Assembly (NCBI GenBank): GCA_965226795.1 | Contig: CBDDDZ010000002.1 | Coordinates: forward strand, 480,001-544,000 | DNA length: 64,000 nucleotides | Reading direction: 5' to 3' | Source: Candidatus Latescibacterota bacterium | Lineage (GTDB): Bacteria > Latescibacterota > UBA2968 > GCA-2709665 | Part shown: positions 48,024-64,000 of the stretch, piece by piece | Layout of the letters: the number at the start of each line of letters is the position of its first letter | Position numbering within the stretch: the first letter of the stretch is position 1 | The notes under the pieces: model-generated | Databases searched by the model: none | What the model was told of the DNA's origin: nothing | Seen by the model: the letters and a program-made list of their open reading frames with translations, nothing else | Position numbers and translations under genes: made by a program

Positions 48024-48264
48024 CGCTGCTCCTATTCCATTTCCTATCGGTTCAATCCCGCCGACCCACGGAACAATTCGACATGGTGCGGCATGATCCC
48101 GTTGATTGCCGTGTGATTCGGCTGAAGACGGAGACTCCCGGATCCTACTAATGGATATACGGTGATGGTGGAATCGTACGGCAGGAAATGCGGCCGGTCA
48201 TCCCGAGATGTCGGATGCGACCGGACTGTGAATGAGGTGGTTTTTTGGTTACTGAAATAAACTT

Positions 48265-48335
48265 ACATGGATGGACAGGATAAACAGGATTAAGAACCGG
48301 GAGACTTTAATCTTGATCATCCTGTCTATCCATGT
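48265..48335. repeat. Palindromic intergenic repeat, copy A
   Basis: ACATGGATGGACAGGATAAACAGGATTAA...TTAATCTTGATCATCCTGTCTATCCATGT. Confidence 0.8.
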
Positions 48336-48382
48336 TTCTAACCTGCAAGTTGCATATCATGTGTTTCTCGAAATGTCGCGGT

Positions 48383-51760: not shown

Positions 51761-51828
51761 ATCTTACCCACTAAAACAGTGTGGTCGGGATGCGATTCGG
51801 GTGAATTTGGGATTGCAGAAAACCATTC

Positions 51829-51898
51829 ACATGGATGGACAGGATACACAGGATACAAACCACGACTCTTCAATCCTGTTCATCCTGCGCATCCATGT
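51829..51898. repeat. Palindromic intergenic repeat, copy C
   Basis: ACATGGATGGACAGGATACACAGGAT...ATCCTGTTCATCCTGCGCATCCATGT. Confidence 0.8.
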
Positions 51899-51925
51899 TT
51901 TCTGTCGGCCGTGAGGGGAGTTTCG

Positions 51926-52711
51926 ATGTCCCGGAAGAGCGCCATCGAGTGGACCAACGGCACCTGGAACCCGGTTACCGGATGTACGAAGGTCAGCGCC
52001 GGCTGCGATCATTGTTATGCGGAACGCCTATCCGAGCGCTTTCGCGGCGTCGAGGGGCATCCTTTCGAGACCGGCTTTGATCTGACGCTTCGGCCCGCGC
52101 GCCTGGAACAACCCCTGCACTGGCGTCGGCCACAGCTCATCTTCGTCAATTCGATGAGCGATCTGTTCCACAAGGATATTCCCACGGAGTACATCCATCG
52201 CGTATTTGAAACCATGGAACGTGCCGACTGGCACATCTACCAAGTGCTCACCAAGCGCAGTTCCCTGATGCGCCGCTTCGTTCAGGATCGCTATCCCGGC
52301 GGGGCGGCACCCTCCCATATCTGGCTGGGGGTTTCCATCGAAAACGACGCGGCGTTGACGCGTCTTCGCCACCTCAAAGAGACGAACGCGTCCGTCCGCT
52401 TTGTGTCGTTCGAGCCTCTGCTCGGCCCGATGGGGACGGTCAATCTGGAAGATATTCACTGGGTCATCGCGGGAGGGGAAAGCGGACCGGGAGCCCGGGA
52501 GATTAAGCCAGAGTGGGTGCGCGAATTTCGGGATCAGTGTGAGACCCAGCGCGTTGCCTTTTTCTTCAAACAATGGGGCGGTCGAACACCTAAAGCGGGC
52601 GGCAATACGCTGGATGGACGCCAGTGGATGGAGTATCCGAAGATCGGGCAAGGTCAGTTGCCTCATTCGCCCTTAAGGGCGGCAGGGGCGCCCGCTCGCG
52701 ACGAAATTTGA
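51926..52711 (+). CDS. DUF5131 / phage Gp37-Gp68 family protein, copy 1
   Basis: SAIEWT..TWNPVTGCTKVSAGCDHCYA, FVNSMSDLFH, GGESG, FFKQWGG. Confidence 0.9.
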   Translation: MSRKSAIEWTNGTWNPVTGCTKVSAGCDHCYAERLSERFRGVEGHPFETGFDLTLRPARLEQPLHWRRPQLIFVNSMSDLFHKDIPTEYIHRVFETMERADWHIYQVLTKRSSLMRRFVQDRYPGGAAPSHIWLGVSIENDAALTRLRHLKETNASVRFVSFEPLLGPMGTVNLEDIHWVIAGGESGPGAREIKPEWVREFRDQCETQRVAFFFKQWGGRTPKAGGNTLDGRQWMEYPKIGQGQLPHSPLRAAGAPARDEI

Positions 52712-52758
52712 GAATTTCCCAATAGACAAAAATGGACAGATCTAGAGGCGTTCGCGTA

Positions 52759-55700
52759 ATGGTTAAGAACCTCGACAAATTAGCAGAAAAAATCGATGCA
52801 GCATTCGACCTTCGAGATTTGGAGGAACTGCGTCAATGCACCGAACAATGTGAGAAGATGCTGAGGTCGGTACACGACTTTGACCAACCTCTGGTCTACT
52901 ACTTTCAGGCAAATGCATATTCTGCTATCCGTAAGATAAAGTCAACTGACGAGAACTATCTTTGGAATTGGATTCAATCAGAGTATACCAAAGAAATTCT
53001 AGCCCTTAGACAGTCCATAAGACATCAAAACTTCCGCCGTCTTGATGCAATTAGGCGTTGTCAAATCTTAACAAACCTTGGCAATTCGTTGAATGCAGTT
53101 GGGCGTCCGATTGAAGCCATTGAGATGTGGGACGAAGCGCTGAAAATAACACCGATTTTCGCGATGGCACGTGGTAGCCGTGGGAAGGGATTGTTGTACT
53201 ACAGCGGCGCACTTTATGATGTCGGACACCGAGGTATCTTTCTGATGCAAGCAAAAAAGGATTATCTCAAGGCCATATCACCCCAAAGTCTATGGGATAG
53301 CGTATATCCGAACGAGGTCCATGAAGAATTTCAACAGCAGGCAAACGAGATTGAAGAGTACCTTCAACGGCACTTTGATGAGAGTAAGTTCGAGCCATAC
53401 AATTGGCCGTTAGGTACAACCGAGAATGAGCAGCGATACAGGAAATGGCGTCTGGAACACCGATTGTTCCTGAATCCCCTAAACGATCTAAAGGCGTGGC
53501 CCATCGCTGCCCATGACATATTTCATCTTCCGGATCATGTCTATCGAATTGACGAGAGACCTCGATTCGTACAGCTTTACGATTCATTAAAACAAGAATA
53601 CGTCGCGGCGTGCCTCCTGCTTTATGAAGGAATTCAGGCCAAGAGCGAGCACTACGCCGACAGGGGCAACTTGGTTTTCGATCACTGCGACGGATCCATT
53701 GGAGGGGCAAGAATTGAGTCGCCTAAAACAGCGAGAATATCGTGGTGCCGGGCAGCGACCTGCGGCGATCAACGTAGAGGGAGGCCACCAGGTTGGTCTG
53801 GGTGTTGTCAATCTGCACAAGGATTATGCGGGGATCATCAGGGGTGTAGCGAGGTAGTTCTTGATCCGAACCAGGTTGATCCATAGGCCACGACACCAGG
53901 CCCACCGTTGGTGTGGCATCAGTCCGCGATAGCGCGTCTTGCCATTTTGGGTGTAATAGCTCAACTGGAAATGCTGGCCTCGACATTGTTGCGTCTGTTT
54001 CTAATATGGGCAGGGAGTGCTTCGATCTGTTTGCGATTGAGGTAACTGTCGATGTGTTGTTCTTTAAAATCGTGGTTTGCCATCGATGATGATTTTGTAT
54101 TTTCCCGTTTGTATTCTTGGGCAAGCTGAACCTCTCCGGTTTGTTGATCAATGACCTTGACACCGTCTGCTGTGCGTTCATAACTGAAACGCCCTGGGGT
54201 TCCTTGCAGGCCACTGTAATAGAATTGCTTGTCCTGTTCTTTTGCGTAGGCGTTGGATTGATCATTATAGGCCCCATCCATTGACACTTCCAAGACGTCA
54301 CCCACCACGCGTTGTGTCTGCTCAATGGCAGGTTGGACAAACGCGTTGTCGGGACTCGTCGCCGGTTTGACGTCAACATCCGTGATCAAATTGCAGGCCA
54401 TTCATCGCAGGTCTCGGTGAGGTTGACATTAAATTCTCGCCTTTCCTGCGAAAGGCCGCATCGTCATCATGGGCAGACTGCAACGAGGATGAACAGATTT
54501 TGACCGTATATTGGTCCTCAAAAACACGCACGATCAGACCATATCGATCGCTGTCTTTCTCGGTATACATCTTGTAGCCTGCAATAACCGCCCCAATTCC
54601 TGTAGCTTCTCGCCTTTTTCAGTAGTGAGACGGTAGACAATTGGGGCTTCCCTTGGATCAGATCCTCCAAAACCTGCTGATCCGTTGCCGATAATCGTCC
54701 CTTCTCATCCTTGTCCAATGACCTCCAGAACCCTTGTAAGCAACAAACCACCAACTGCAACCGACAACACAAGGCAATGTTGGCGCCGACTGTCCATTCG
54801 GATTTGTTGACCCAATACACCAAAGGCCTTGGCCTGCGTCTTTGAAGCTGAAAAGGTCTCTCCTACCAGATCGCGATTCAGTTGATACGCATACAAAGCC
54901 TGCTTGAACAGATAATACGTGGACTCGACAGGCGTAAGATTCACCAACCCCAATGCCCCCATCACCTGAACCGACATTGCTCAAAAAGTTGGGCATCGCT
55001 CCACCCAAAGCCCTCCTTCAAGATCATCATCGACACCAGATGCCGGAATTGGGACGGCCTATGTCAGGGTCAAACACCACACGAAAAATATCCTCATCGA
55101 CCTTTGACGTGATGTGCTCGTAGAACAGATTATTCCAGGCGGCCGGATCATTTAGCCGATCCAGCTTCGGACCTTTGAAATGCGACTCGAATAAACAGAT
55201 CCGGCTGACTTGAAGGGGCACTCCTTCTAAACATATGTCCCTCGCTTCTTTGTGATCAAACATCAATCTGAAACATTGCAACCTGTTGACACCTCGAATT
55301 TAGTACTTTTCCCTGGTTAAGTAAACACGACTTTTCGGAGTGGGCTCAGAATTGAAAAACAAAAGATGGCTTTCCGAAGTGCATATTCAATCTTGGATAA
55401 AGTGGCGATGTTTTTGAACGAGTACTACAATCTTGGCAAGGATAGTAGAAGGCTCAATTTTCGCACTGTTTGGCATGATGGAAGGAAAATCAGTAGTCGG
55501 ATTCCTCAAAAAAACTGGCGTTTGAGGGGTCTCTACGCGCTATCAATTGATCTCTTCGATAACGAATTCAAGGAGACGGCATTGCCGCATTCAGAACTCA
55601 TAAACGATGTGAGAAACGCTGCGGAACATCGTTTTCTCCAGGTGTACGAGGATGGAACAGTCCTTGATTCAGATCACATTACTAGTCGAGTGACATATAG

Positions 55701-55845
55701 TGAACTCTACCGTATGGCATTGCGAATGCTCAAGATCGCCCGCGCCGCACTTATCTACCTGTCGCTGTCCATGTACCATCAAGAAAATTTAGTATCACCT
55801 TCGACAAATTCCGAAATTACTGTTCAAGGGATGCCGAAGAGATAA
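52759..55845 (+). pseudogene. TPR + LA2681-like HEPN protein interrupted by an IS
   Basis: TPR (LTNLGNSL..GRPIEAI), LFLNPLND; removing the IS restores GGARIEKQKMAFRSAYSILDK in frame; RNAAEH HEPN motif. Confidence 0.85.
53716..55347 (-). mobile_element. Insertion sequence (IS5/IS1182-like DDE) with multiply frameshifted transposase
   Basis: AGAATT direct repeats at 53710-53715 and 55348-55353; GAG...CTC ends; fragments GRPN, IRMDS, MDGAY, RRNNVEAS. Confidence 0.82.
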
Positions 55846-56117: not shown

Positions 56118-56879
56118 ATGGCCGACAAGTCTGCGATTGAATGGACCGACGCAACGTGGAATCCAGTTACCGGCTGCACCAAGGTCACACGTGGCTGCGA
56201 CAACTGTTATGCCGAGCGAATTGCCGAACGGTTTCGCGGCGTAAGGGGCCATCCGTTTGAAAATGGCTTTGAACTCACGCTCCGACCAGAGCGGCTTTCC
56301 CAACCGCTTTCATGGAAACGCCCTAGAAGAGTGTTTGTGAATTCAATGAGTGACTTGTTTCACAATAAGATTCCAACAGAGTTTATAGATCGTGTCTTCG
56401 ATACGATGGAGGATGCCGACCGTCACATTTTTCAGGTCCTAACAAAACGAAGCTCGCTTATGCAGAATTATCTGCAGGGAAGATATGGGCACGGGGCAGC
56501 ACCGCGACACATCTGGTGCGGAGTGTCCGTTGAAGACCACACCGCAACCGCCAGAATCCGGCATCTTCAAAAGGCTCCGGTGCCGATTCGTTTCCTGTCA
56601 ATAGAACCACTTCTGGGTCCTGTGGGAGAAATCGACCTGGAAGGGATATCCTGGGTAATTGTAGGCGGCGAAAGCGGTCCAAACGCTCGGCCCATGAAAG
56701 AATGTTGGGTAATCGAAGTCAAGGAACTCTGCAAACGCAATGGGGTAGATTTCTTCTTCAAGCAATGGGGCGGACTGACCTCAAAATCGGGTGGACGACG
56801 CCTCAAAGGGATCGAGTACAACGCCATGCCTGTATACTCTACAGCGGAGAAAAACTGTGAATTTCAACTGGCACCCTGA
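56118..56879 (+). CDS. DUF5131 / phage Gp37-Gp68 family protein, copy 2
   Basis: TWNPVTGCTKVTRGCDNCYA, FVNSMSDLFH, FFKQWGG. Confidence 0.9.
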   Translation: MADKSAIEWTDATWNPVTGCTKVTRGCDNCYAERIAERFRGVRGHPFENGFELTLRPERLSQPLSWKRPRRVFVNSMSDLFHNKIPTEFIDRVFDTMEDADRHIFQVLTKRSSLMQNYLQGRYGHGAAPRHIWCGVSVEDHTATARIRHLQKAPVPIRFLSIEPLLGPVGEIDLEGISWVIVGGESGPNARPMKECWVIEVKELCKRNGVDFFFKQWGGLTSKSGGRRLKGIEYNAMPVYSTAEKNCEFQLAP

Positions 56880-58137
56880 AGAACCTCCACCTTCTATTGA
56901 CAAACACAGCAAAGCCAAACTCGATGTATTACGTAGCTACCTTCGCGCCTATTTCGATACGCTGAATGTCAACCCCAGTCGTGAAGAATTCAAAATCGAT
57001 CTCGTTGATGGCTTTGCTGGGGGAGGCACGTTTCGGGACGGCGAAAAAACCGTCTCAGGTACACCTCTGATTATGCTTGAAGAGTGCAGAGCGGCAATGG
57101 ATAGGTTGAACGAAAATCGCACCAAGCCCCTGCGTTTCGATTCCAAATGTTACTTTATAGATAAAGAAGCCGCCCACACGGATCATCTTCGAAGGGTCCT
57201 ACGTGAGCGAGAGTACGTCTTGGATGATGACAGAATCGTTGTCCGTAACAGCCTATTTGAAGAGGAAGTCGAAAACATCCTGACGGCAATTAAGTACCGC
57301 CAGCCTATCGCCGGTCGCGCGATTTTTCTTCTCGATCAGACCGGATTCTCGCAAGTAGAACTCGGGCTTGTAGCCAGGATTCTGCGCGAATTGCCAAGAG
57401 TGGAGGTCATTTTGACATTTGCAGCGGATGCCCTCGCCAACCATCTTGCTCTCACACCCGAAATGATTAAGATGGTCGCTCCGCTTGAATTGACCGAATC
57501 ACAGATACATGACTTGATTCAACTCAAGAATGGCAACGTAGGAAGAGCACTCGTTCAAAGGACGTTGCGTGAGCATATTCGCTTTGTGACGGGCGCGACA
57601 TACGATACACCCTTTTTCATACGCCCAAGACAGTCACGACGGGCTTTATGGTTCCTCCATCTGTCAAAACATCCAACAGCGCGCGACGTCATGATTCAAG
57701 TTCATTGGGAGATTCAGAATACTTTTGAACACTATGGTTCCGGCGATTTCGGTATGCTGGGTTGGGACACATTGAGGGATCCTGGAGCAATTCCGCTCTT
57801 TAGCTTTTCTGAAATGGACCAAGATAAAATGCGCACGCAGCTTCTGGACACCATGCCGCGGGAACTCTTCAGTTTGGCATCCGAAGAACCTGTCACGATT
57901 GACGCGATGCGGCACAGGTTCGCAAACAGAACGGCTGCCCGTTATTCGGATCTCGATTCAATCGTACTGCAGCTTTTTCGCGAAGGCGAGATTGAGATTC
58001 TGGGTGCCAACGATAGAATCCGCTCAACTTCGCTGTTAAACCTTAGAACTGTTGACCGGATCCAGATGCCTAAGCAGACGCGAATCTATTTCGAGGATTC
58101 ACGCAGAGGTTCGAATCAGGGATCACACAAGATTTGA
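56857..58137 (+). CDS. tcmP: Three-Cys-motif partner protein (SAM-methyltransferase-like)
   Basis: HSKAKLDVLRSYL, VDGFAGGG, FLLDQTG; overlaps DUF5131; GTG start with GGAG. Confidence 0.8.
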   Translation: MNFNWHPEEPPPSIDKHSKAKLDVLRSYLRAYFDTLNVNPSREEFKIDLVDGFAGGGTFRDGEKTVSGTPLIMLEECRAAMDRLNENRTKPLRFDSKCYFIDKEAAHTDHLRRVLREREYVLDDDRIVVRNSLFEEEVENILTAIKYRQPIAGRAIFLLDQTGFSQVELGLVARILRELPRVEVILTFAADALANHLALTPEMIKMVAPLELTESQIHDLIQLKNGNVGRALVQRTLREHIRFVTGATYDTPFFIRPRQSRRALWFLHLSKHPTARDVMIQVHWEIQNTFEHYGSGDFGMLGWDTLRDPGAIPLFSFSEMDQDKMRTQLLDTMPRELFSLASEEPVTIDAMRHRFANRTAARYSDLDSIVLQLFREGEIEILGANDRIRSTSLLNLRTVDRIQMPKQTRIYFEDSRRGSNQGSHKI

Positions 58138-58209
58138 CAGTTTCCCGCTGTGCGACAGCCGGTGCAAGCATGAAAAACAACGAATCGACGACGATGGGGA
58201 GAACAAAAT

Positions 58210-58395
58210 ATGTTAGACATTGATGCACTGCTGCAGAAAAACCCGGACGTAAGGAAGGTTTTCGAGAAAAACCAGGCTTTGCTTTCGAAATGTCCACCGG
58301 CAAAGAAAGCGAAGTACCGACTTGGAGATCCGTTCGGGGCTAGACGTCCGGTTGACGATACGCCCGTCAGCCAACCCCGGCCAAAGGCGAGATAG
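58210..58395 (+). CDS. Small basic hypothetical protein
   Basis: 61-aa ORF, GGAG upstream, terminator downstream. Confidence 0.45.
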   Translation: MLDIDALLQKNPDVRKVFEKNQALLSKCPPAKKAKYRLGDPFGARRPVDDTPVSQPRPKAR

Positions 58396-58424
58396 GTCGT
58401 AGCCTGATATTCCTTCGACGAACG

Positions 58425-58463
58425 AAAAAAAGAAGCCGTGGCTGTTGTCGCCTCGGCTTCTTT
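58425..58463. terminator. Probably bidirectional terminator
   Basis: A-tract AAAGAAGCCG...CGGCTTCTTT between convergent units. Confidence 0.7.
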
Positions 58464-58798
58464 GTTGGAAATCTCACCGTCTCGATGCGGGAAATTTGCT
58501 TCTGGAGTCGTTCGGAACGGGTTGTGCGATACCTTGAGGTGATAATTCGTTTTCTGATGTGGCCGATCACTGTGATTCAGTAACTATTCGCGCACTTCCT
58601 GTATCTGGATCAGGCCAACAGTACCGGACGGCTCGTCTCGTTCAAGCCCCTGCCTAGCTAAATGCGGCCCTCGCTTGTGGAGCCCATGAAGCAGCCGGAG
58701 AGGCCGAATTTGCATCAATCTGGTGCCCCGTCTAACACGGTCGACGAATGCGAACCAATCCACGATATCCAATATTTCCACTATAGATCAAGGATGTG

Positions 58799-58999
58799 CT
58801 AAGCTTCTAGTGCTTCCCGAATCGCCTTTTCCATACTTGGGCGAACTTTGTCCATGCTCCTACGGGCGGAGTCCTCAGCCATCTGCAGGATTTCCGCAAG
58901 CTCTTCGCCCTTAGGTTCGGGCGGAGTCGCTATATCAGGCGTCGGATGTTTCTCCTTGTGCACCCGCGCCGTTTTCAACTGGCGTGATGTCCGAGCCAT
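58799..58999 (-). CDS. Small protein overlapping the Ntn-hydrolase-like gene
   Basis: AGGAGG 7 nt before ATG; 66 aa, charged, helical C-terminus. Confidence 0.6.
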   Translation of the reverse strand: MARTSRQLKTARVHKEKHPTPDIATPPEPKGEELAEILQMAEDSARRSMDKVRPSMEKAIREALEA

Positions 59000-60344
59000 A
59001 TCTTTTCCTCCTGAATGAAGTTCTATCGAAATAAGATGGATTTAACTCAGGCGAGAAATAGTGTTTGCGCTTAATCCAAATCAACCCATCGCCCTTCGTA
59101 ATTAACGCAACGTCGGTTGGACCACCAACTGTTTCTTCATCGCTCGATACGCGTCTCTTGAGCGCAGTCAGACTTACAAGTGATTCAGCCATTTCCGCAA
59201 GTTGTTCCTTAGGAAGCATAGCCACCACATTCATAATGGGCTGCGAAAAAAACCGCGCTCCAAACCCTTCGACGCTGTCCATAAAGGAATCGGCTACCTG
59301 AGTGTGATATTGATCCAAGACGTCACGCAGTTTCTCTGTTTCAATATTCGAGTGTTTGCTGAGTGATCGCATCAAGTCGTCAGTGTATTGCTCCAAGTGA
59401 GACACTACAGATCGGTGAAGATAGGGGAGGTAACCAGGTGCTATTCCCTCCATGAATTGATAAACCATATCGATCTGTGCGAATGGCACGATCGCTGACT
59501 GATTGTCTGGGTTGAGAGTCACTTCATGTTTGTCTGGATGAATCTTTAATCTGTTTTGTACCATCCCTTCAACATGTGCTCGCGAAATAGCAGGGAAGAA
59601 ATCCTGCTCGCCGAAACCGGAGACGACAACACCGGAAGTGAAGCCAGAAGGCGGGTGGCGTGTAACCTCATCAAAGAACCCGCATATCGCCTTAACTGCG
59701 ATATAATTGAGTTTTTGCTGGAGCCCTCGCCGAAGATGTAACTGATCAAACACCGACGCGCGTGCGCTTCGAAGGTGCCCACGTAGTGATTTGCGCACGG
59801 ACCTTTCGAACTCCCGGGGCGCACCTTCAATTGCAGGGGCACTCTTGGCTCTTGAGTGATACTCGTCAACGACTTCCTCGGTCAGTTCATGTTCCATCTG
59901 TGCGAATTTTTCAATTTCAAATCGTCCGCTTTCTTCGACAGCTTTAGCGATCGTTTTGTCGATCCTTTGCTGTATTTCCTGTCGAATCTCAGAGAAGATC
60001 TGCTGGGATAAGCGTACGGCATAGTCCAACTGCTGTTGGTCGCTTATTCGGTCACCTATGTGATGTTCCAAGAATCTGCAGAAATCGTTGGCGTACTCGT
60101 GGAGTTTCGCGAAGGTCTTTCTTCCGAGAATACACCGATACTCTTTCACTATTGTTTCCCATGGGATCGACATGAAACTGGCGTTGCCATACACGAGAAT
60201 TCCAACTGGTGCGACCTCGGAGAGAGCGAAGAGTTTATTTGCTGACGAGAAAATCTTCTGATTGCCGCCTGGATATGCTGTAATTGCGCTATCCGCTGCC
60301 AATGCGACAGCTTGTAGATTGAGGATGGCTATTTCGGCAGTCAT
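58935..60344 (-). CDS. Proteasome-beta/Ntn-hydrolase-like protein with large insertion
   Basis: M-T1...AAD17S...NK36LF, C-terminal TVGGPTDVALI. Confidence 0.65.
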   Translation of the reverse strand: MTAEIAILNLQAVALAADSAITAYPGGNQKIFSSANKLFALSEVAPVGILVYGNASFMSIPWETIVKEYRCILGRKTFAKLHEYANDFCRFLEHHIGDRISDQQQLDYAVRLSQQIFSEIRQEIQQRIDKTIAKAVEESGRFEIEKFAQMEHELTEEVVDEYHSRAKSAPAIEGAPREFERSVRKSLRGHLRSARASVFDQLHLRRGLQQKLNYIAVKAICGFFDEVTRHPPSGFTSGVVVSGFGEQDFFPAISRAHVEGMVQNRLKIHPDKHEVTLNPDNQSAIVPFAQIDMVYQFMEGIAPGYLPYLHRSVVSHLEQYTDDLMRSLSKHSNIETEKLRDVLDQYHTQVADSFMDSVEGFGARFFSQPIMNVVAMLPKEQLAEMAESLVSLTALKRRVSSDEETVGGPTDVALITKGDGLIWIKRKHYFSPELNPSYFDRTSFRRKRYGSDITPVENGAGAQGETSDA

Positions 60345-60574
60345 AATCTATAGAGCCTTAGTTGTTACCCGAGTTCCGGATTCATAGCAATTGGTGTAGA
60401 TGACCCCGAAAGCAGTCAAGTATTCCTTAAATGCTATAGTGCCACGGTAGCTTTAGGTACCCGAATATAATTTCACGATAACAGACAGAAAAGTCAAATC
60501 TACCCACGTCGCAAACGGCTCGATGCCAGCGCGAACGCGAAAAAGACATTTGCCTTACTGCGGCCAAAATTAGA

Positions 60575-60975
60575 CAGCATCAATATCCGTGGATCCCGCC
60601 CCTTCCGTAAAGTGAGGTGCCGCAACAGGCGACAGCGTGCGTTTTGGAATTGCGCGTTCGACCGCAAAACCCTATCCCCAAATTACTGGGACGGCTGATT
60701 CTCCGACTCAGGGTAAATGCGGCGAGCAGAATAACGAACGTACTTGCGACCGGAAGCCTCTTGTCTAGCTCGAATATATTTGAATATCGCTTTCACGTCG
60801 TAGCCAAACCGAGCCGCGTGTTCCTCCCGGACGGCCCGCACTTCGGTGATAAGCGGGTCAACCTGAAGTGTCGTCATGTATTCGAGTACTCCATTGCCAC
60901 CGAGTTTGCCGTCTCAAATGGCGACGGGGACGATGCTTCACAGGGCATTTTGGTTACAAAGATGTCAAACGGCAC
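60575..60975 (-). pseudogene. Decayed copy of the type ISP gene 3' end, split by a small ORF
   Basis: FDIF-NQNAL*SIVPVAI*DGKLGGNGVL (~60880-60975) and ERAIPKRTLSP..HFTE.A..ILML (~60575-60662) align by eye to 63365-63560. Confidence 0.65.
60683..60877 (-). CDS. Small protein of the family usually found next to PIN toxin genes (orphan antitoxin-like)
   Basis: DPLITEVRAVREEHAARFGYDVKAIF motif. Confidence 0.65.
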   Translation of the reverse strand: MTTLQVDPLITEVRAVREEHAARFGYDVKAIFKYIRARQEASGRKYVRYSARRIYPESENQPSQ

Positions 60976-61162
60976 ACTGCCTCGTTGGATCGCGTTCGGC
61001 TGCCAGTTATTGGTCGCCGCCGCAAACCAATCGCGGCATTCGCTTGCATTGTATAAAGAAGATGGCGCGAAGATCCATCAGCTTTTTCGGAATCGATGCC
61101 ATGGCACCAAGATCTTCTACGCCTTTATCCGCCACCATCAGCGTTTGACCAAAACTCGACCC

Positions 61163-62017
61163 TTAGTCGATTGACGCGTATAGGTCATCCGCAATTTCGT
61201 CCGTGGTCTTCAAGGACGTATTGAGAGCGACTATGTCAGCCAACATAGGACTGAATTGGGCTACCTCATCCTTTGAAATTTCGTGCCAAACCGGCAAGAT
61301 CCGTGCAGCGCCTTCGCCTTCGAGTGACAAAAGGCCATTAAGCTCTCTTTGAGGCCACTCCTTGTTGAAAAAGTGTCTTGACAATACAACAACTCCGAAG
61401 CGTGAATTCGCCAGCCCTCGATCAATCTCTCTACGCAAGCTGTCCCCAACCTTCAGAGTTAATTCGTCGTACCATACCCTTGCTCCTCTGGCTTGAAGCG
61501 CGTCTGCCAATCCGCGAACAAATGTATCCTTGTCTTCACCAGCGTGCGAGATAAAGAAGTCGTAGCTGACTTGCTGTGCTTCCGTGGAGGCGGTAGGGAT
61601 ACCCGACGTGTCGGCACGGTGCCGGATCTCACTCGAGATCTTTCTTTCGTTATCCTCGGGCTCGTGAATCAGCTGTTTTTGTGCGCCTGAAATTCTCTTG
61701 CGCTCTTTTTCGTCTTCGCGGGCCTGACGCTCCTGGTTAGAACTCAGGTTTTTGGACTTGGCAGCGATCTTGCCTGAGATTTCGGCACGTTTCTTCTGGA
61801 CGGTCGCGAGTTCCGCGGTTGAGCGCTCAATCTTCTTCAACTCATTCTGGAGGGCCGAGGCGCTATTTGCGCGAGACGCCGCTTGGTTTGCACGATTGAT
61901 CCCCGCATGAATATCGGCTTCTTTCTTGGTCTCCTTTGCCTCAGCCTTTCGGAGATCGGCGATTTCCTTGATTAACCGATTGATCTGGTTTGTGTAGTTC
62001 AATTCCGATTCCCCCAT
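61163..62017 (-). CDS. Coiled-coil + TIR domain protein
   Basis: YDFFISHAGEDK, VWYD, GDSLRREIDRGL, WPQRE catalytic Glu; alternative TTG start 62002. Confidence 0.88.
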   Translation of the reverse strand: MGESELNYTNQINRLIKEIADLRKAEAKETKKEADIHAGINRANQAASRANSASALQNELKKIERSTAELATVQKKRAEISGKIAAKSKNLSSNQERQAREDEKERKRISGAQKQLIHEPEDNERKISSEIRHRADTSGIPTASTEAQQVSYDFFISHAGEDKDTFVRGLADALQARGARVWYDELTLKVGDSLRREIDRGLANSRFGVVVLSRHFFNKEWPQRELNGLLSLEGEGAARILPVWHEISKDEVAQFSPMLADIVALNTSLKTTDEIADDLYASID

Positions 62018-62074
62018 ATAAATCGTTAAAAATGTGTTCCTTATCGTATACGGAATTCGCAACGGGCCGCCTGA

Positions 62075-62360
62075 GTTCCTCGAATTCGCCTCGCTATATT
62101 TGCAAAGCACAGCACTTCCGGGAGTGGCAGTGCCCCGCCCGATGTCGCGCTCACGGTAGAACAGCCGTATCGTTAGGAACTGATAGCCGCCGGGTTAGTA
62201 GGCCCAAATCTCGCCGGCGATGTTGCGCAATAAGGATCCTTAGTTCAGTTAAACGTCCTGCGACTGGGCGCCCAACTCGGGTATCGCCGCTCCCACTGTG
62301 GTGGGCTTGTCCTCAGTAAAGGCGCCTTTACACCGATCATTGACATGCCGGGACAACATC
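62075..62360 (-). pseudogene. Decayed copy of the type ISP gene 3' end
   Basis: LGAQSQDV*LN*GSLLRNIAGEIWAY*PGGYQFLTIRLFYRER...LPEVLCFANIARRIRG versus intact LGEATFDIYLNDKAFWRNIPAAIWNYKVGGYQVLKKWLSYRER...PEEVAYFAEVARRIAG. Confidence 0.8.
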
Positions 62361-62432
62361 GCATTGCCCAAACGATTGCGTTGGAATTCAGGTACTGATC
62401 GCAAGCATCGGCATCAGGTCTTTGTGGAAGGC

Positions 62433-63344
62433 TCAAGATCCACATTCTGACACCGTCGGACGCAATTTGGAAGGTTTTATCACCTCAAATATGTAATCGG
62501 CCAAGAAGATCGTATTCAAGCTGTTTTGCTGTGAAGAGTAGACAACCAAGCCGTGTATGGCCGCATGGCGATTTGGGACCGGGTTATTCTTGAGGCTTTC
62601 AAGGTGCTCTTCGCACTTGACATCTGTAAACAATCCGAAGATTAAGTCGTCACTCTCGGACACAGGTTCTTCTCCACGCTCGATTCTTTTCTTTTCTCGG
62701 ACGGCTTTTGTCAAATGTGCGAATATGGTAAGATCGTAGAGACCTCGATGAATAAATGCATCAATGGATTTGTCGTCATCGGTCAGCCTTTTGATAAACT
62801 TCCTGTATCCAATAGGTCCGATTCTGTTACCGAATAGTTCCTTGCGAAACACTCGTTCGATTTCTGGAAATAGGACACGGCATACGCACCGGTAAAGTCC
62901 GGCCTCGTGAGCATCGAGTGCTTCGCGAAGGGTCGCTTTCGCCTCTCTATCAACCCTGTAATGTGATATTCGGGCTTCTATTTTGGCACGGACATTCTGC
63001 CAGTTGCTCGTGTAGTAGTCATCGAGTTTGTTTCGGATCAATTCAGCGTCGTCGCCATATTCCGCGATATTATCGAATGGCGTTGTGTAGTGTGGCAACC
63101 AACCGGCCCTTCCAATAACCTCGCAACTAAGATTCCACTTCTGGAATTCGACAATTACGTTTGCTATCTGAGAAGCATGACTTTTCAGAAAATGACACCA
63201 CGCTCGCAATAGCGGCTCGATCTGGCGGCTCATTTCTTTAAGGATGCCGGAGGTAACCAACCACTTTTTGAACCCGTCTGCAAACCCATCGGAGTCAAGA
63301 AATGCTCGAACTTCCTCGGGACTATTGAATTTTCCCCCGTACAT
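62433..63344 (-). CDS. Hypothetical protein with C-terminal HEPN-like motif
   Basis: LFPEIER...PNRHAAIHG; starts 5 nt after the ISP stop. Confidence 0.65.
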   Translation of the reverse strand: MYGGKFNSPEEVRAFLDSDGFADGFKKWLVTSGILKEMSRQIEPLLRAWCHFLKSHASQIANVIVEFQKWNLSCEVIGRAGWLPHYTTPFDNIAEYGDDAELIRNKLDDYYTSNWQNVRAKIEARISHYRVDREAKATLREALDAHEAGLYRCVCRVLFPEIERVFRKELFGNRIGPIGYRKFIKRLTDDDKSIDAFIHRGLYDLTIFAHLTKAVREKKRIERGEEPVSESDDLIFGLFTDVKCEEHLESLKNNPVPNRHAAIHGLVVYSSQQNSLNTIFLADYIFEVIKPSKLRPTVSECGS

Positions 63345-63349
63345 CAGAA

Positions 63350-64000
63350 TTACTCCTCGCTTCTTCCCGTCAACATAAGTATCCCCGCGATCCTCCTCGC
63401 CACCTCCGCAAAGTACGCCACCTCCTCGGGCTTGAGCGTCCGTCCGAGCACCTTCCGTTCGCGATAGGATAGCCATTTCTTGAGCACCTGGTAACCGCCG
63501 ACTTTGTAGTTCCAGATTGCGGCTGGGATGTTGCGCCAGAAAGCTTTGTCGTTCAGGTAAATGTCAAATGTGGCTTCGCCCAGTATAGACATCGCTACCC
63601 CAAGGTCTCTCCTTTCCTCCGCCGTGTACTTTCGTTGTTTGACGCGGCCCTTGCCCGGCATCACGGGCTTGTCCGAGCCATAGCGCCCCCGACCCCACCC
63701 GGCGGTAACCGCGAAGTCTTGGTCCGACAAATTACGATTATCGACAGTAGAAGGTTCGGCAATAGCCGCGAATTCTCGTTGCAGTGTGCCCTCGGTCACA
63801 CCTGGAACGGCCTTACTGGTGTCGAGTAGCCGTGCCAATTCGCGGCCCCTCGTCGCAGATGCTTTGAGGGACTCCCCCTCTGTGCCTTCAGTCTTGCCAT
63901 CGGGCCACCCCGGAAGAGGAACGCGAGGCCATTCCATCCTCAACGCGCCAGCATTGGCCTCCCGGTAAGCGGGATCGTGAAGAGTGGCAAGGACATGATG
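63350..64000 (-). CDS. Type ISP restriction-modification enzyme, C-terminal part (runs off window)
   Basis: LHDPAYREANAGALRMEWPRVPLP, WNYKVGGYQVLKKWLSYRE. Confidence 0.85.
   Translation of the reverse strand, partial: HHVLATLHDPAYREANAGALRMEWPRVPLPGWPDGKTEGTEGESLKASATRGRELARLLDTSKAVPGVTEGTLQREFAAIAEPSTVDNRNLSDQDFAVTAGWGRGRYGSDKPVMPGKGRVKQRKYTAEERRDLGVAMSILGEATFDIYLNDKAFWRNIPAAIWNYKVGGYQVLKKWLSYRERKVLGRTLKPEEVAYFAEVARRIAGILMLTGRSEE

Follow-up and report, generated by a model that had tools for sequence, protein, structure and literature searches.

Decayed ends of a restriction-methylase gene punctuate a defence-gene array and suggest one-sided recombination at both ends of the gene

It is an open question how chromosomal defence islands gain genes without an integrase or a resident mobile element, and a locus in the genome of a Candidatus Latescibacterota bacterium (G000, assembly GCA_965226795.1) bears on it. 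We analysed a stretch of 64,000 nucleotides (nt) of contig CBDDDZ010000002.1 (G000:C2:480001-544000; the window), which the 3′ part of a restriction-modification (R-M) gene, here called the anchor, enters on the minus strand. Read along that strand, the intact gene end is followed by an HEPN-like gene, a decayed copy of an anchor 3′ end (stump 1), a TIR gene, stump 2, a 64-amino-acid (aa) open reading frame (ORF) whose PIN-like neighbour is deleted, stump 3, and an Ntn hydrolase gene with a 66-aa ORF (Table 1). An interpretation made from the letters of the window alone (the sequence-only reading) had proposed that the resident gene takes up units of gene end plus cargo by recombination, with older ends and older cargo displaced downstream. 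Our best model keeps this core and takes the array to be a fossil record of recombination, not a dedicated cassette machine.

The remnants are real. Stump 1 matched the intact 3′ end at 116 of 171 nt with a score of 99, where 300 shuffles reached 39 at most, and was recovered genome-wide (blastn E 5e-12, tblastn E 9e-6) despite in-frame stops and a frameshift. Among intact ends, that of its own adjacent gene ranks only 47th of 87 as a match, and on this comparison stump 1 is derived from another allele. The second region (60575-60975), which the sequence-only reading had described as one split and more eroded remnant, is significant as well: 60897-60969 matched the intact end at 49/73 nt (score 44) and 60575-60642 at 47/68 nt (score 37), with 0/300 shuffles as high for either piece, while a control stretch at 58000-58940 scored at chance level (197/300). 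The rest of that description did not stand. The start of stump 3 lies some 180 nt ahead of the YQVLKKWL codons (ungapped match 27/46, 0/300 in the null), upstream of the tail part carried by stump 2, so the pieces at 60882-60971 and 60573-60699 are not collinear and represent two stumps. A single split remnant was rejected for this reason, because the end of the PIN-like gene (matched by the bases just before the 64-aa ORF) and the ORF itself intervene, and because the internal deletion of stump 3 is also present in locus L230. Family-invariant columns were mismatched at 26/113 in stump 1 and 22/79 in stumps 2 and 3 pooled, and the second region does not appear clearly more eroded. Consensus promoters numbered two in 58700-63600 against 4.8 expected, none of them inside a stump. 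A further stump, of the gene's 5′ end, lies upstream of the anchor and outside the window, so that G000 carries three 3′ stumps downstream and one 5′ stump upstream; action at the 5′ end is something that the sequence-only reading missed.

The anchor encodes a single chain of 1118 aa whose only Pfam domains are N6_Mtase, Eco57I, MmeI_Mtase and Type_ISP_C (PF02384, E 1e-9; PF18135, E 4e-44). It thus has the N6-adenine methyltransferase (MTase) and the Type_ISP_C target-recognition domain (TRD) of Type ISP enzymes, but no helicase domain or RecA-like/SF2 ATPase-translocase, and its alignments with LlaGI and LlaBIII begin at their MTase. In the accessible text of the DrdV preprint (bioRxiv 10.1101/2021.01.06.425610) Type ISP enzymes are set apart by an additional ATPase; because none is present here, the anchor shares the TRD family with Type ISP yet is no member. 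The same text describes DrdV, a Type IIL enzyme (PDB 7lo5), as a single chain of similar length with MTase, ISP-type TRD and no translocase. DrdV is also the closest solved structure (E 1e-36), the best PADLOC model is REase_MTase_IIG (303 bits, residues 28-520), and an MTase with a C-terminal TRD in one chain without a translocase is the Type IIL/IIG (DrdV-like) arrangement. Enzymes of that class carry an N-terminal PD-(D/E)XK nuclease domain, methylate one strand and cut at a fixed distance. Pfam gave no match to a nuclease domain in the anchor protein, in which a PD...EVK-like motif can be made out by eye. As judged from its sequence, the anchor is probably a DrdV-like Type IIL/IIG restriction-methylase; it is not the type ISP gene that it had been called. 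The nearest named records for its tail come from Candidatus Latescibacterota, Dehalococcoidia, Binatia and other metagenome-assembled genomes of many phyla. Orthologous alleles are 73-86% identical in the tail and mostly 47-72% in TRD windows (range 47-82%), and the conserved last ~400 nt of the gene is the homology arm. Elsewhere in G000, a second, distant (29%) ISP-TRD methylase gene (G000:C5:2876764-2879705) lies ~8 kb from a tyrosine recombinase match, and no partial copies were found near it. Two R-M genes of the family have large internal deletions that fuse the 5′ part to the 3′ part (L012 9013-10392, L041 8684-10383).

Stumps of this kind recur across the family with a strict polarity. 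From 57 intact genes we derived a DNA profile, which was divided into 11 tiles and run against the flanks with whole genes masked. After exclusion of one duplicate beforehand, 181 loci less 9 near-identical ones and 52 without a whole gene in view left 120 for a uniform tally; 13 of the 181 had been fetched partly for multiple matches, and polarity was not selected for. The 3′ tile matched 26 times downstream (19 loci; two matches in L218 are probably one deleted stump) and once upstream, and the 5′ tile eight times upstream (seven loci) and once downstream. Both exceptions are long tandem copies, in L026 (a whole copy cut by the contig end) and L063 (near-whole). Opposite-strand matches were absent from the 120 loci, and reversed-sequence controls gave none. 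The first set had been assembled without regard to multiple matches. In it, 13/79 loci had 3′-end matches of at least 15 bits; all 17 of its 3′ matches lay downstream on the same strand and all four 5′ matches upstream. A metagenome set, with mostly short contigs, gave three matches in 2/80 loci. Five further loci have a solo 3′ stump and no intact gene in the fetched region (L221 9962-10080, L222 9617-9680, L223 10016-10142, L232 9780-10552 and L128, G004:C1:16746-16901); there the anchor was probably lost later.

Stumps could also arise if whole genes were duplicated or acquired in tandem and the spare copy then eroded at random, and tandem copies do exist: three whole R-M copies each in L025 (3398-14024) and L026 (1-10394), and a second long copy in L063 (6353-20340). 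Erosion at random would be expected to leave 3′ stumps on the upstream side, 5′ stumps on the downstream side and pieces of the middle. The observed polarity weakens this account, and the middle tiles, once the two long copies and the continuations of end stumps are set aside, yielded a single fragment, in L059. Young stumps, moreover, have only 1-9% mismatch at invariant columns and are 8-22% different from the adjacent gene, mostly at third codon positions (third-position excess: G008 5/4/12, L040 13/8/29, L023c 3/2/14), which points to other working alleles and not to self-duplication. We regard the erosion of tandem copies as very unlikely. The tandem whole copies are mostly 84-97% identical, with TRD windows at 55-81%, and may possibly be multi-specificity arrays.

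The junctions bear on how the stumps were formed. In 20 stumps the left end falls between -262 and +79 nt relative to the YQVLKKWL codon, and at -359 in L216; no 6-mer was common to at least three of seven left flanks. All four tyrosine-recombinase (PF00589) matches in G000 are on contig C5 and none on C2, serine recombinases not being searched, in line with the earlier remark that no integrase is visible nearby. A site-specific recombinase acting in trans on an attachment (att) site in the gene's 3′ end, as with islands at tRNA and other gene ends, would give the order of intact end, cargo and displaced end that resembles tandem islands, and two stumps do begin at the same position (-21), with different flanks. 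Such a fixed site is nevertheless hardly credible, because left ends are spread over more than 400 nt, no flank motif is shared and the recombinase matches lie on another contig; mirror events at the 5′ end argue against it too. With no adjacent integrase of the family searched and no fixed boundary, the locus lacks two hallmarks of integrons and att islands.

At the 5′ end, related genomes allowed the events to be followed. In G013 an AAA ATPase gene and a toxin-antitoxin pair precede the intact gene. G000 tracks G013 at 96% to about nt 90 of the gene and then passes into an internal piece of another AAA gene, followed by a Dsr1-like SIR2 gene and the start of the new gene. Two such 5′ events, with other breakpoints and other cargo, are present in G008. 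Over the first ~190 nt the intact genes of G000, G008 and G013 diverge, and the 258 nt that follow are the same in all three, which places the homologous crossover beyond the end of the stump. Microhomology of 6, 4, 9 and ~6 nt was present at all four resolvable 5′ junctions (chance of at least 4 nt, 0.016 each). Homologous crossover at one end only, as seen in this triad through proxy parents, together with 3-10 bp of microhomology at the other junction, is the pattern of homology-facilitated illegitimate recombination (HFIR), by which linear DNA is integrated in one RecA-dependent step; none of the 3′ junctions was resolvable. The genome encodes ComEC, which allows transformation and is no proof of it. 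As for mobile carriers, we found no phage match and five distant plasmid matches (40-46%).

The region upstream of the anchor (G000:C2:546805-553341; L001 9805-16341) holds the Dsr1-like SIR2 gene and the 5′ stump, an internal fragment of a HEC-01A-like AAA ATPase gene that is 93% identical to an intact copy further upstream, and an MNT-HepT toxin-antitoxin pair on the opposite strand. In G008 (L119 12266-19803), a Tiamat-like gene (TmtA, 1061 bits) and an SNF2 helicase gene stand between a 5′ stump and the intact gene.

Cargo turns over at the anchor. Eight genomes of the same genus carry it at the same site, between a large upstream gene that by eye resembles a TonB-dependent receptor and a downstream DUF5131 gene, with five different families as first cargo. 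A unit that is attached in one genome can be found displaced elsewhere. The stump of G015 and its flank, the gene there being a pAgo, match the intact ends and flanks of L017, L030, L026 and L067 at 79-89% over ~645 nt; a gene end with the start of the HEPN-like gene sits 10 kb downstream in G001; and a Schlafen-like family (F45) is first cargo in G006 and second in G013, where no stump was detected. One contig from run X1 links the R-M tail (63442) to the TIR start region (62004) with a likeness of 90, which is weak evidence. Among the neighbours of stumps are a pAgo, a Tiamat-like gene, Schlafen, TIR/SLOG, Mrr and a number of PADLOC candidates; many of the neighbours fall in no family. A housekeeping-type gene follows closely after the last stump in L032 (11593-12999, amidase) and L052 (14240-15334, isocitrate/isopropylmalate dehydrogenase), so the last stump in these two loci may mark the original island edge.

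With the polarity in 120 loci, the attached and displaced units, the variable ends and the confinement of the tyrosine-recombinase matches to another contig in its favour, the core of the sequence-only reading is upheld. We consider it probable that the mosaic R-M gene serves as a homology anchor for one-sided recombination, by HFIR or an equivalent insert-then-trim route. Foreign DNA with a related allele and its neighbour genes would enter the cell. A crossover in a conserved part, the last ~400 nt or the first ~200 nt, would then keep a complete hybrid gene, as genome comparisons suggest, and the other end of the incoming DNA would join resident DNA at 4-9 nt of microhomology, as seen at the four 5′ junctions. 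A join inside the old gene end would leave a stump of variable length before (3′) or behind (5′) the old neighbours, and a join beyond it would add or replace cargo without a stump. Anti-phage selection would fix these rare events while the stumps decay, and multi-gene blocks may travel with their own older stumps, which would order an array only loosely by age.

Several points weigh against this interpretation. The loci are related and the counts not independent, and with 13 loci picked partly for several matches the frequencies are rough. The TIR and Ntn genes of G000 were first cargo in 0/86 loci. In a crude genome-wide scan, paralogues and repeats included, 29 of 2335 long G000 ORFs (~1%) had a downstream 3′ copy, against 8 with 3′ copies upstream, 21 with 5′ copies upstream and 24 with 5′ copies downstream; scars of nearby partial copies are therefore not unique to the R-M gene. 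Judged by its end products, one-step HFIR looks the same as circle integration, or as an intermediate in tandem that microhomology deletion trimmed later. Proxies from other genomes stand in for the junction parents, the one case of 4 nt is weak, no 3′ junction was resolved with both parents, and later gene conversion could blur the position of the 5′ crossover. The accessible text of PMC3240628 calls HFIR very rare and puts circle integration in E. coli at ten times its frequency; the one-step route is thus an inference.

Circle integration leads to an alternative in which cargo bracketed by a tail and a stump, after excision as a circle or through a conventional double crossover, inserts additively into the tails of other alleles, while illegitimate joins only seed such units. 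A circle model of this kind has been published for Rhs arrays (PMC2935791, accessible part), and some junctions do recur. The join of the 64-aa ORF to a stump was found at 27-36/46 nt in 6/31 copies of the ORF (ungapped; gapped in L230), with five different downstream contexts among G000, L010, L217, L218, L229 and L230; L032 and L042 have cargo and junction in common and diverge inside the stump; and G010 and G012 agree at 96-98% over the cargo and at 84-98% over the final ~300 nt of the gene, compared with 88-93% for the large gene upstream and 48-80% for parts of the R-M gene further up. Different downstream contexts would also follow from later replacement of neighbours, however, and many junctions are unique. 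The 5′ crossover is situated past the duplicated segment, a position that one crossover within the repeat cannot produce, and among the matches listed from four runs (contigs only) there was no tail-to-stump excision joint. As the main route we find this unlikely. Existing stumps may still be reused as second homology arms, to judge from the recurring junctions, and we entertain as a tentative idea that, after one illegitimate join has bracketed cargo, tail and stumps form a self-propagating, integrase-free cassette system.

A strict age order, which the sequence-only reading had inferred and proposed to check by asking whether identity falls with distance, is not supported. Identity in G000 is flat (68, 67 and 69%), and among the six arrays with at least two stumps that were scored, one was clearly ordered, two weakly and three not. 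From proximal to distal, the decay index was 0.01/0.31 in G008, 0.23/0.28 in G000 and 0.20/0.27 in L158, and 0.36/0.26 in G002, 0.27/0.09 in G001 and 0.06/0.25/0.02/0.21 in L023. Strict age order was rejected on these grounds. Imported blocks carrying older stumps would explain a loose order, and blocks of this type are described in the accessible part of Kirchberger et al. (PMC5361080).

Nor does cargo arrival appear to change specificity, as had been suggested. The stumps that accompany whole genes begin no earlier than about aa 950, downstream of D854 and R858 of the anchor, which align with the DrdV contacts D803 and K807 (the two contacts compared, out of a longer list for DrdV). A coupling of cargo and TRD was rejected as a rule: G000, G002 and G013 have the same first cargo with TRD windows 47-72% identical, and G010 and G012 share cargo and not the TRD. 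Because alleles are mosaic and the tandem copies of L025 and L026 differ mainly in the TRD, specificity probably changes by recombination, and such TRD recombination is apparently separate from the arrival of cargo.

The labels given to the cargo from the letters alone held up. In the HEPN-like protein, R259 and H264 are invariant in 92 homologues and HEPN domains are among the top fold matches, with Z of only 5-6; Pfam, PADLOC and NCBIfam gave no match, and we hold the label with moderate confidence. Its gene is first cargo in G000, G002, G013 and L005. The TIR gene matches PF13676 and PADLOC candidate PDC-S66 (327 bits), and in a search of 168 genomes of the phylum a full-length homologue was found only in G002. 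Homologues of the 64-aa ORF lie at most ~520 nt after an intact R-M stop in 6/32 matches; a PIN-like gene precedes the ORF in three translated cases (L013, L072, L217), PIN being the lead for this partner gene (score 0.98). No family was found for the ORF itself, and an atlas search returned only unnamed clusters below 0.9. The Ntn fold is firm, with a proteasome-beta match at Z 16.4 and Thr2 conserved. The 66-aa ORF also follows the Ntn gene in G010 and G013 and is present without it in G006.

Table 1. Positions of the anchor, its stumps and neighbouring genes in the window (or on contig C2 where given as G000:C2)
Feature	Position	Strand	Remarks
Anchor gene, restriction-methylase, whole	G000:C2:543350-546706; 63350..64000 within window	-	
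5′ stump of R-M gene	G000:C2:550967-551050		upstream, outside window; mirror image of 3′ stumps
Cargo 1, HEPN-like protein, 303 aa	62433..63344	-	first gene after intact stop
3′ stump 1	62077..62372	-	profile extent (approximate); stops, frameshifts
Cargo 2, TIR-domain protein	61163..62017	-	long charged N-terminal region; start codon uncertain
3′ stump 2	60882..60971	-	right part deleted along with most of PIN-like gene
Cargo 3 relic, 64-aa ORF	60683..60877	-	partner of PIN-like gene
3′ stump 3	60573..60699	-	fused to end of 64-aa ORF, supplies its stop codon; internal deletion
Cargo 4, proteasome-beta-like Ntn hydrolase, 469 aa	58935..60344	-	helical insertions
66-aa ORF	58799..58999	-	overlaps end of Ntn gene
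DUF5131 + TcmP pair (PADLOC PDC-M30/M41-like)	56118..58137	+	distal flank common to several genus loci

Further along the window, two DUF5131 genes (51779-52711 and 56118-56879) share ~70% identity along 330 nt, and upstream, at 48222-48337, one of them has a partial copy of its 5′ part; DUF5131 may be a second anchor in the same island. A gene with TPR and HEPN_LA2681 domains (52732-55845) is apparently split into ORFs at 52732-53886 and 55366-55845, and the stretch between them resembles, by eye, a decayed transposase. On contig C5, two ORFs that by eye resemble Type I hsdM (G000:C5:2057072-2059510) and hsdR (C5:90059-93595) have partial copies nearby on the same strand, of the 3′ end for the first and of the 5′ end for the second.

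Displacement of gene ends is known from other arrays, which we compare as far as the accessible portions of the cited papers go. In the effector-immunity arrays of Vibrio cholerae's type VI secretion machinery (T6SS; Kirchberger et al. 2017, PMC5361080), a conserved anchor lying upstream, the proposal of HFIR, older genes and 3′ ends shifted downstream, imported blocks with older remnants and the lack of an integrase all resemble the present locus; here the anchor is an R-M gene that is kept intact, both gene ends take part, many phyla are involved, and the cargo consists of free-standing, unrelated defence genes instead of cognate immunity genes. Rhs C-terminal displacement (Jackson et al. 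2009, PMC2935791) likewise shows an intact gene with same-strand fragments behind it that vary in length, some of them degenerate, and units attached in one strain and detached in another. There the displaced tip is a variable functional domain, whereas here it is a conserved tail downstream of the specificity region, and the stumps are diverged alleles, 65-92% identical. The array thus has the same-strand, variable-length gene-end fragments and the units attached elsewhere of both systems, and not their variable toxin tip with a cognate immunity gene. HFIR as described in PMC3240628 combines homology at one end with 3-10 bp of microhomology at the other and deletes the recipient DNA between; those were laboratory selections, whereas the events proposed here would be natural and repeated at one gene family. 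The defence hotspots of P2 phages and P4 satellites (PMC13586616) share rapid cargo swapping at a fixed site, for which illegitimate recombination and defence domains held in common have been put forward as possible routes. They are mobile elements that mostly swap cargo and whose remnants are called unrecognisable, in contrast to the chromosomal, additive array with readable junctions seen here.

The array works like T6SS and Rhs displacement, is a member of neither, and is not an integron. Its mechanism is known from these arrays; R-M gene-end stumps delimiting defence cargo, or an R-M gene as a two-sided anchor, were not found in the literature reachable outside most subscription papers and supplements, and the accessible text of PMC11551731 and PMC12707154 holds nothing on R-M gene-end stumps. 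Because the junctions are readable, two-sided and present at about one locus in six, the order of events, donors and breakpoints can be reconstructed, which makes the mechanism of integrase-free gene gain testable. The stumps may also flag candidate defence genes, including the HEPN-like and Ntn genes of this locus, which have no family. Should tail and stumps indeed act as a cassette system, ordinary recombination would add cargo to any allele of the family, across phyla and without deleting the resident cargo, and could remove it again; the R-M family would then offer a common docking site to a pool of defence genes spanning the whole community.

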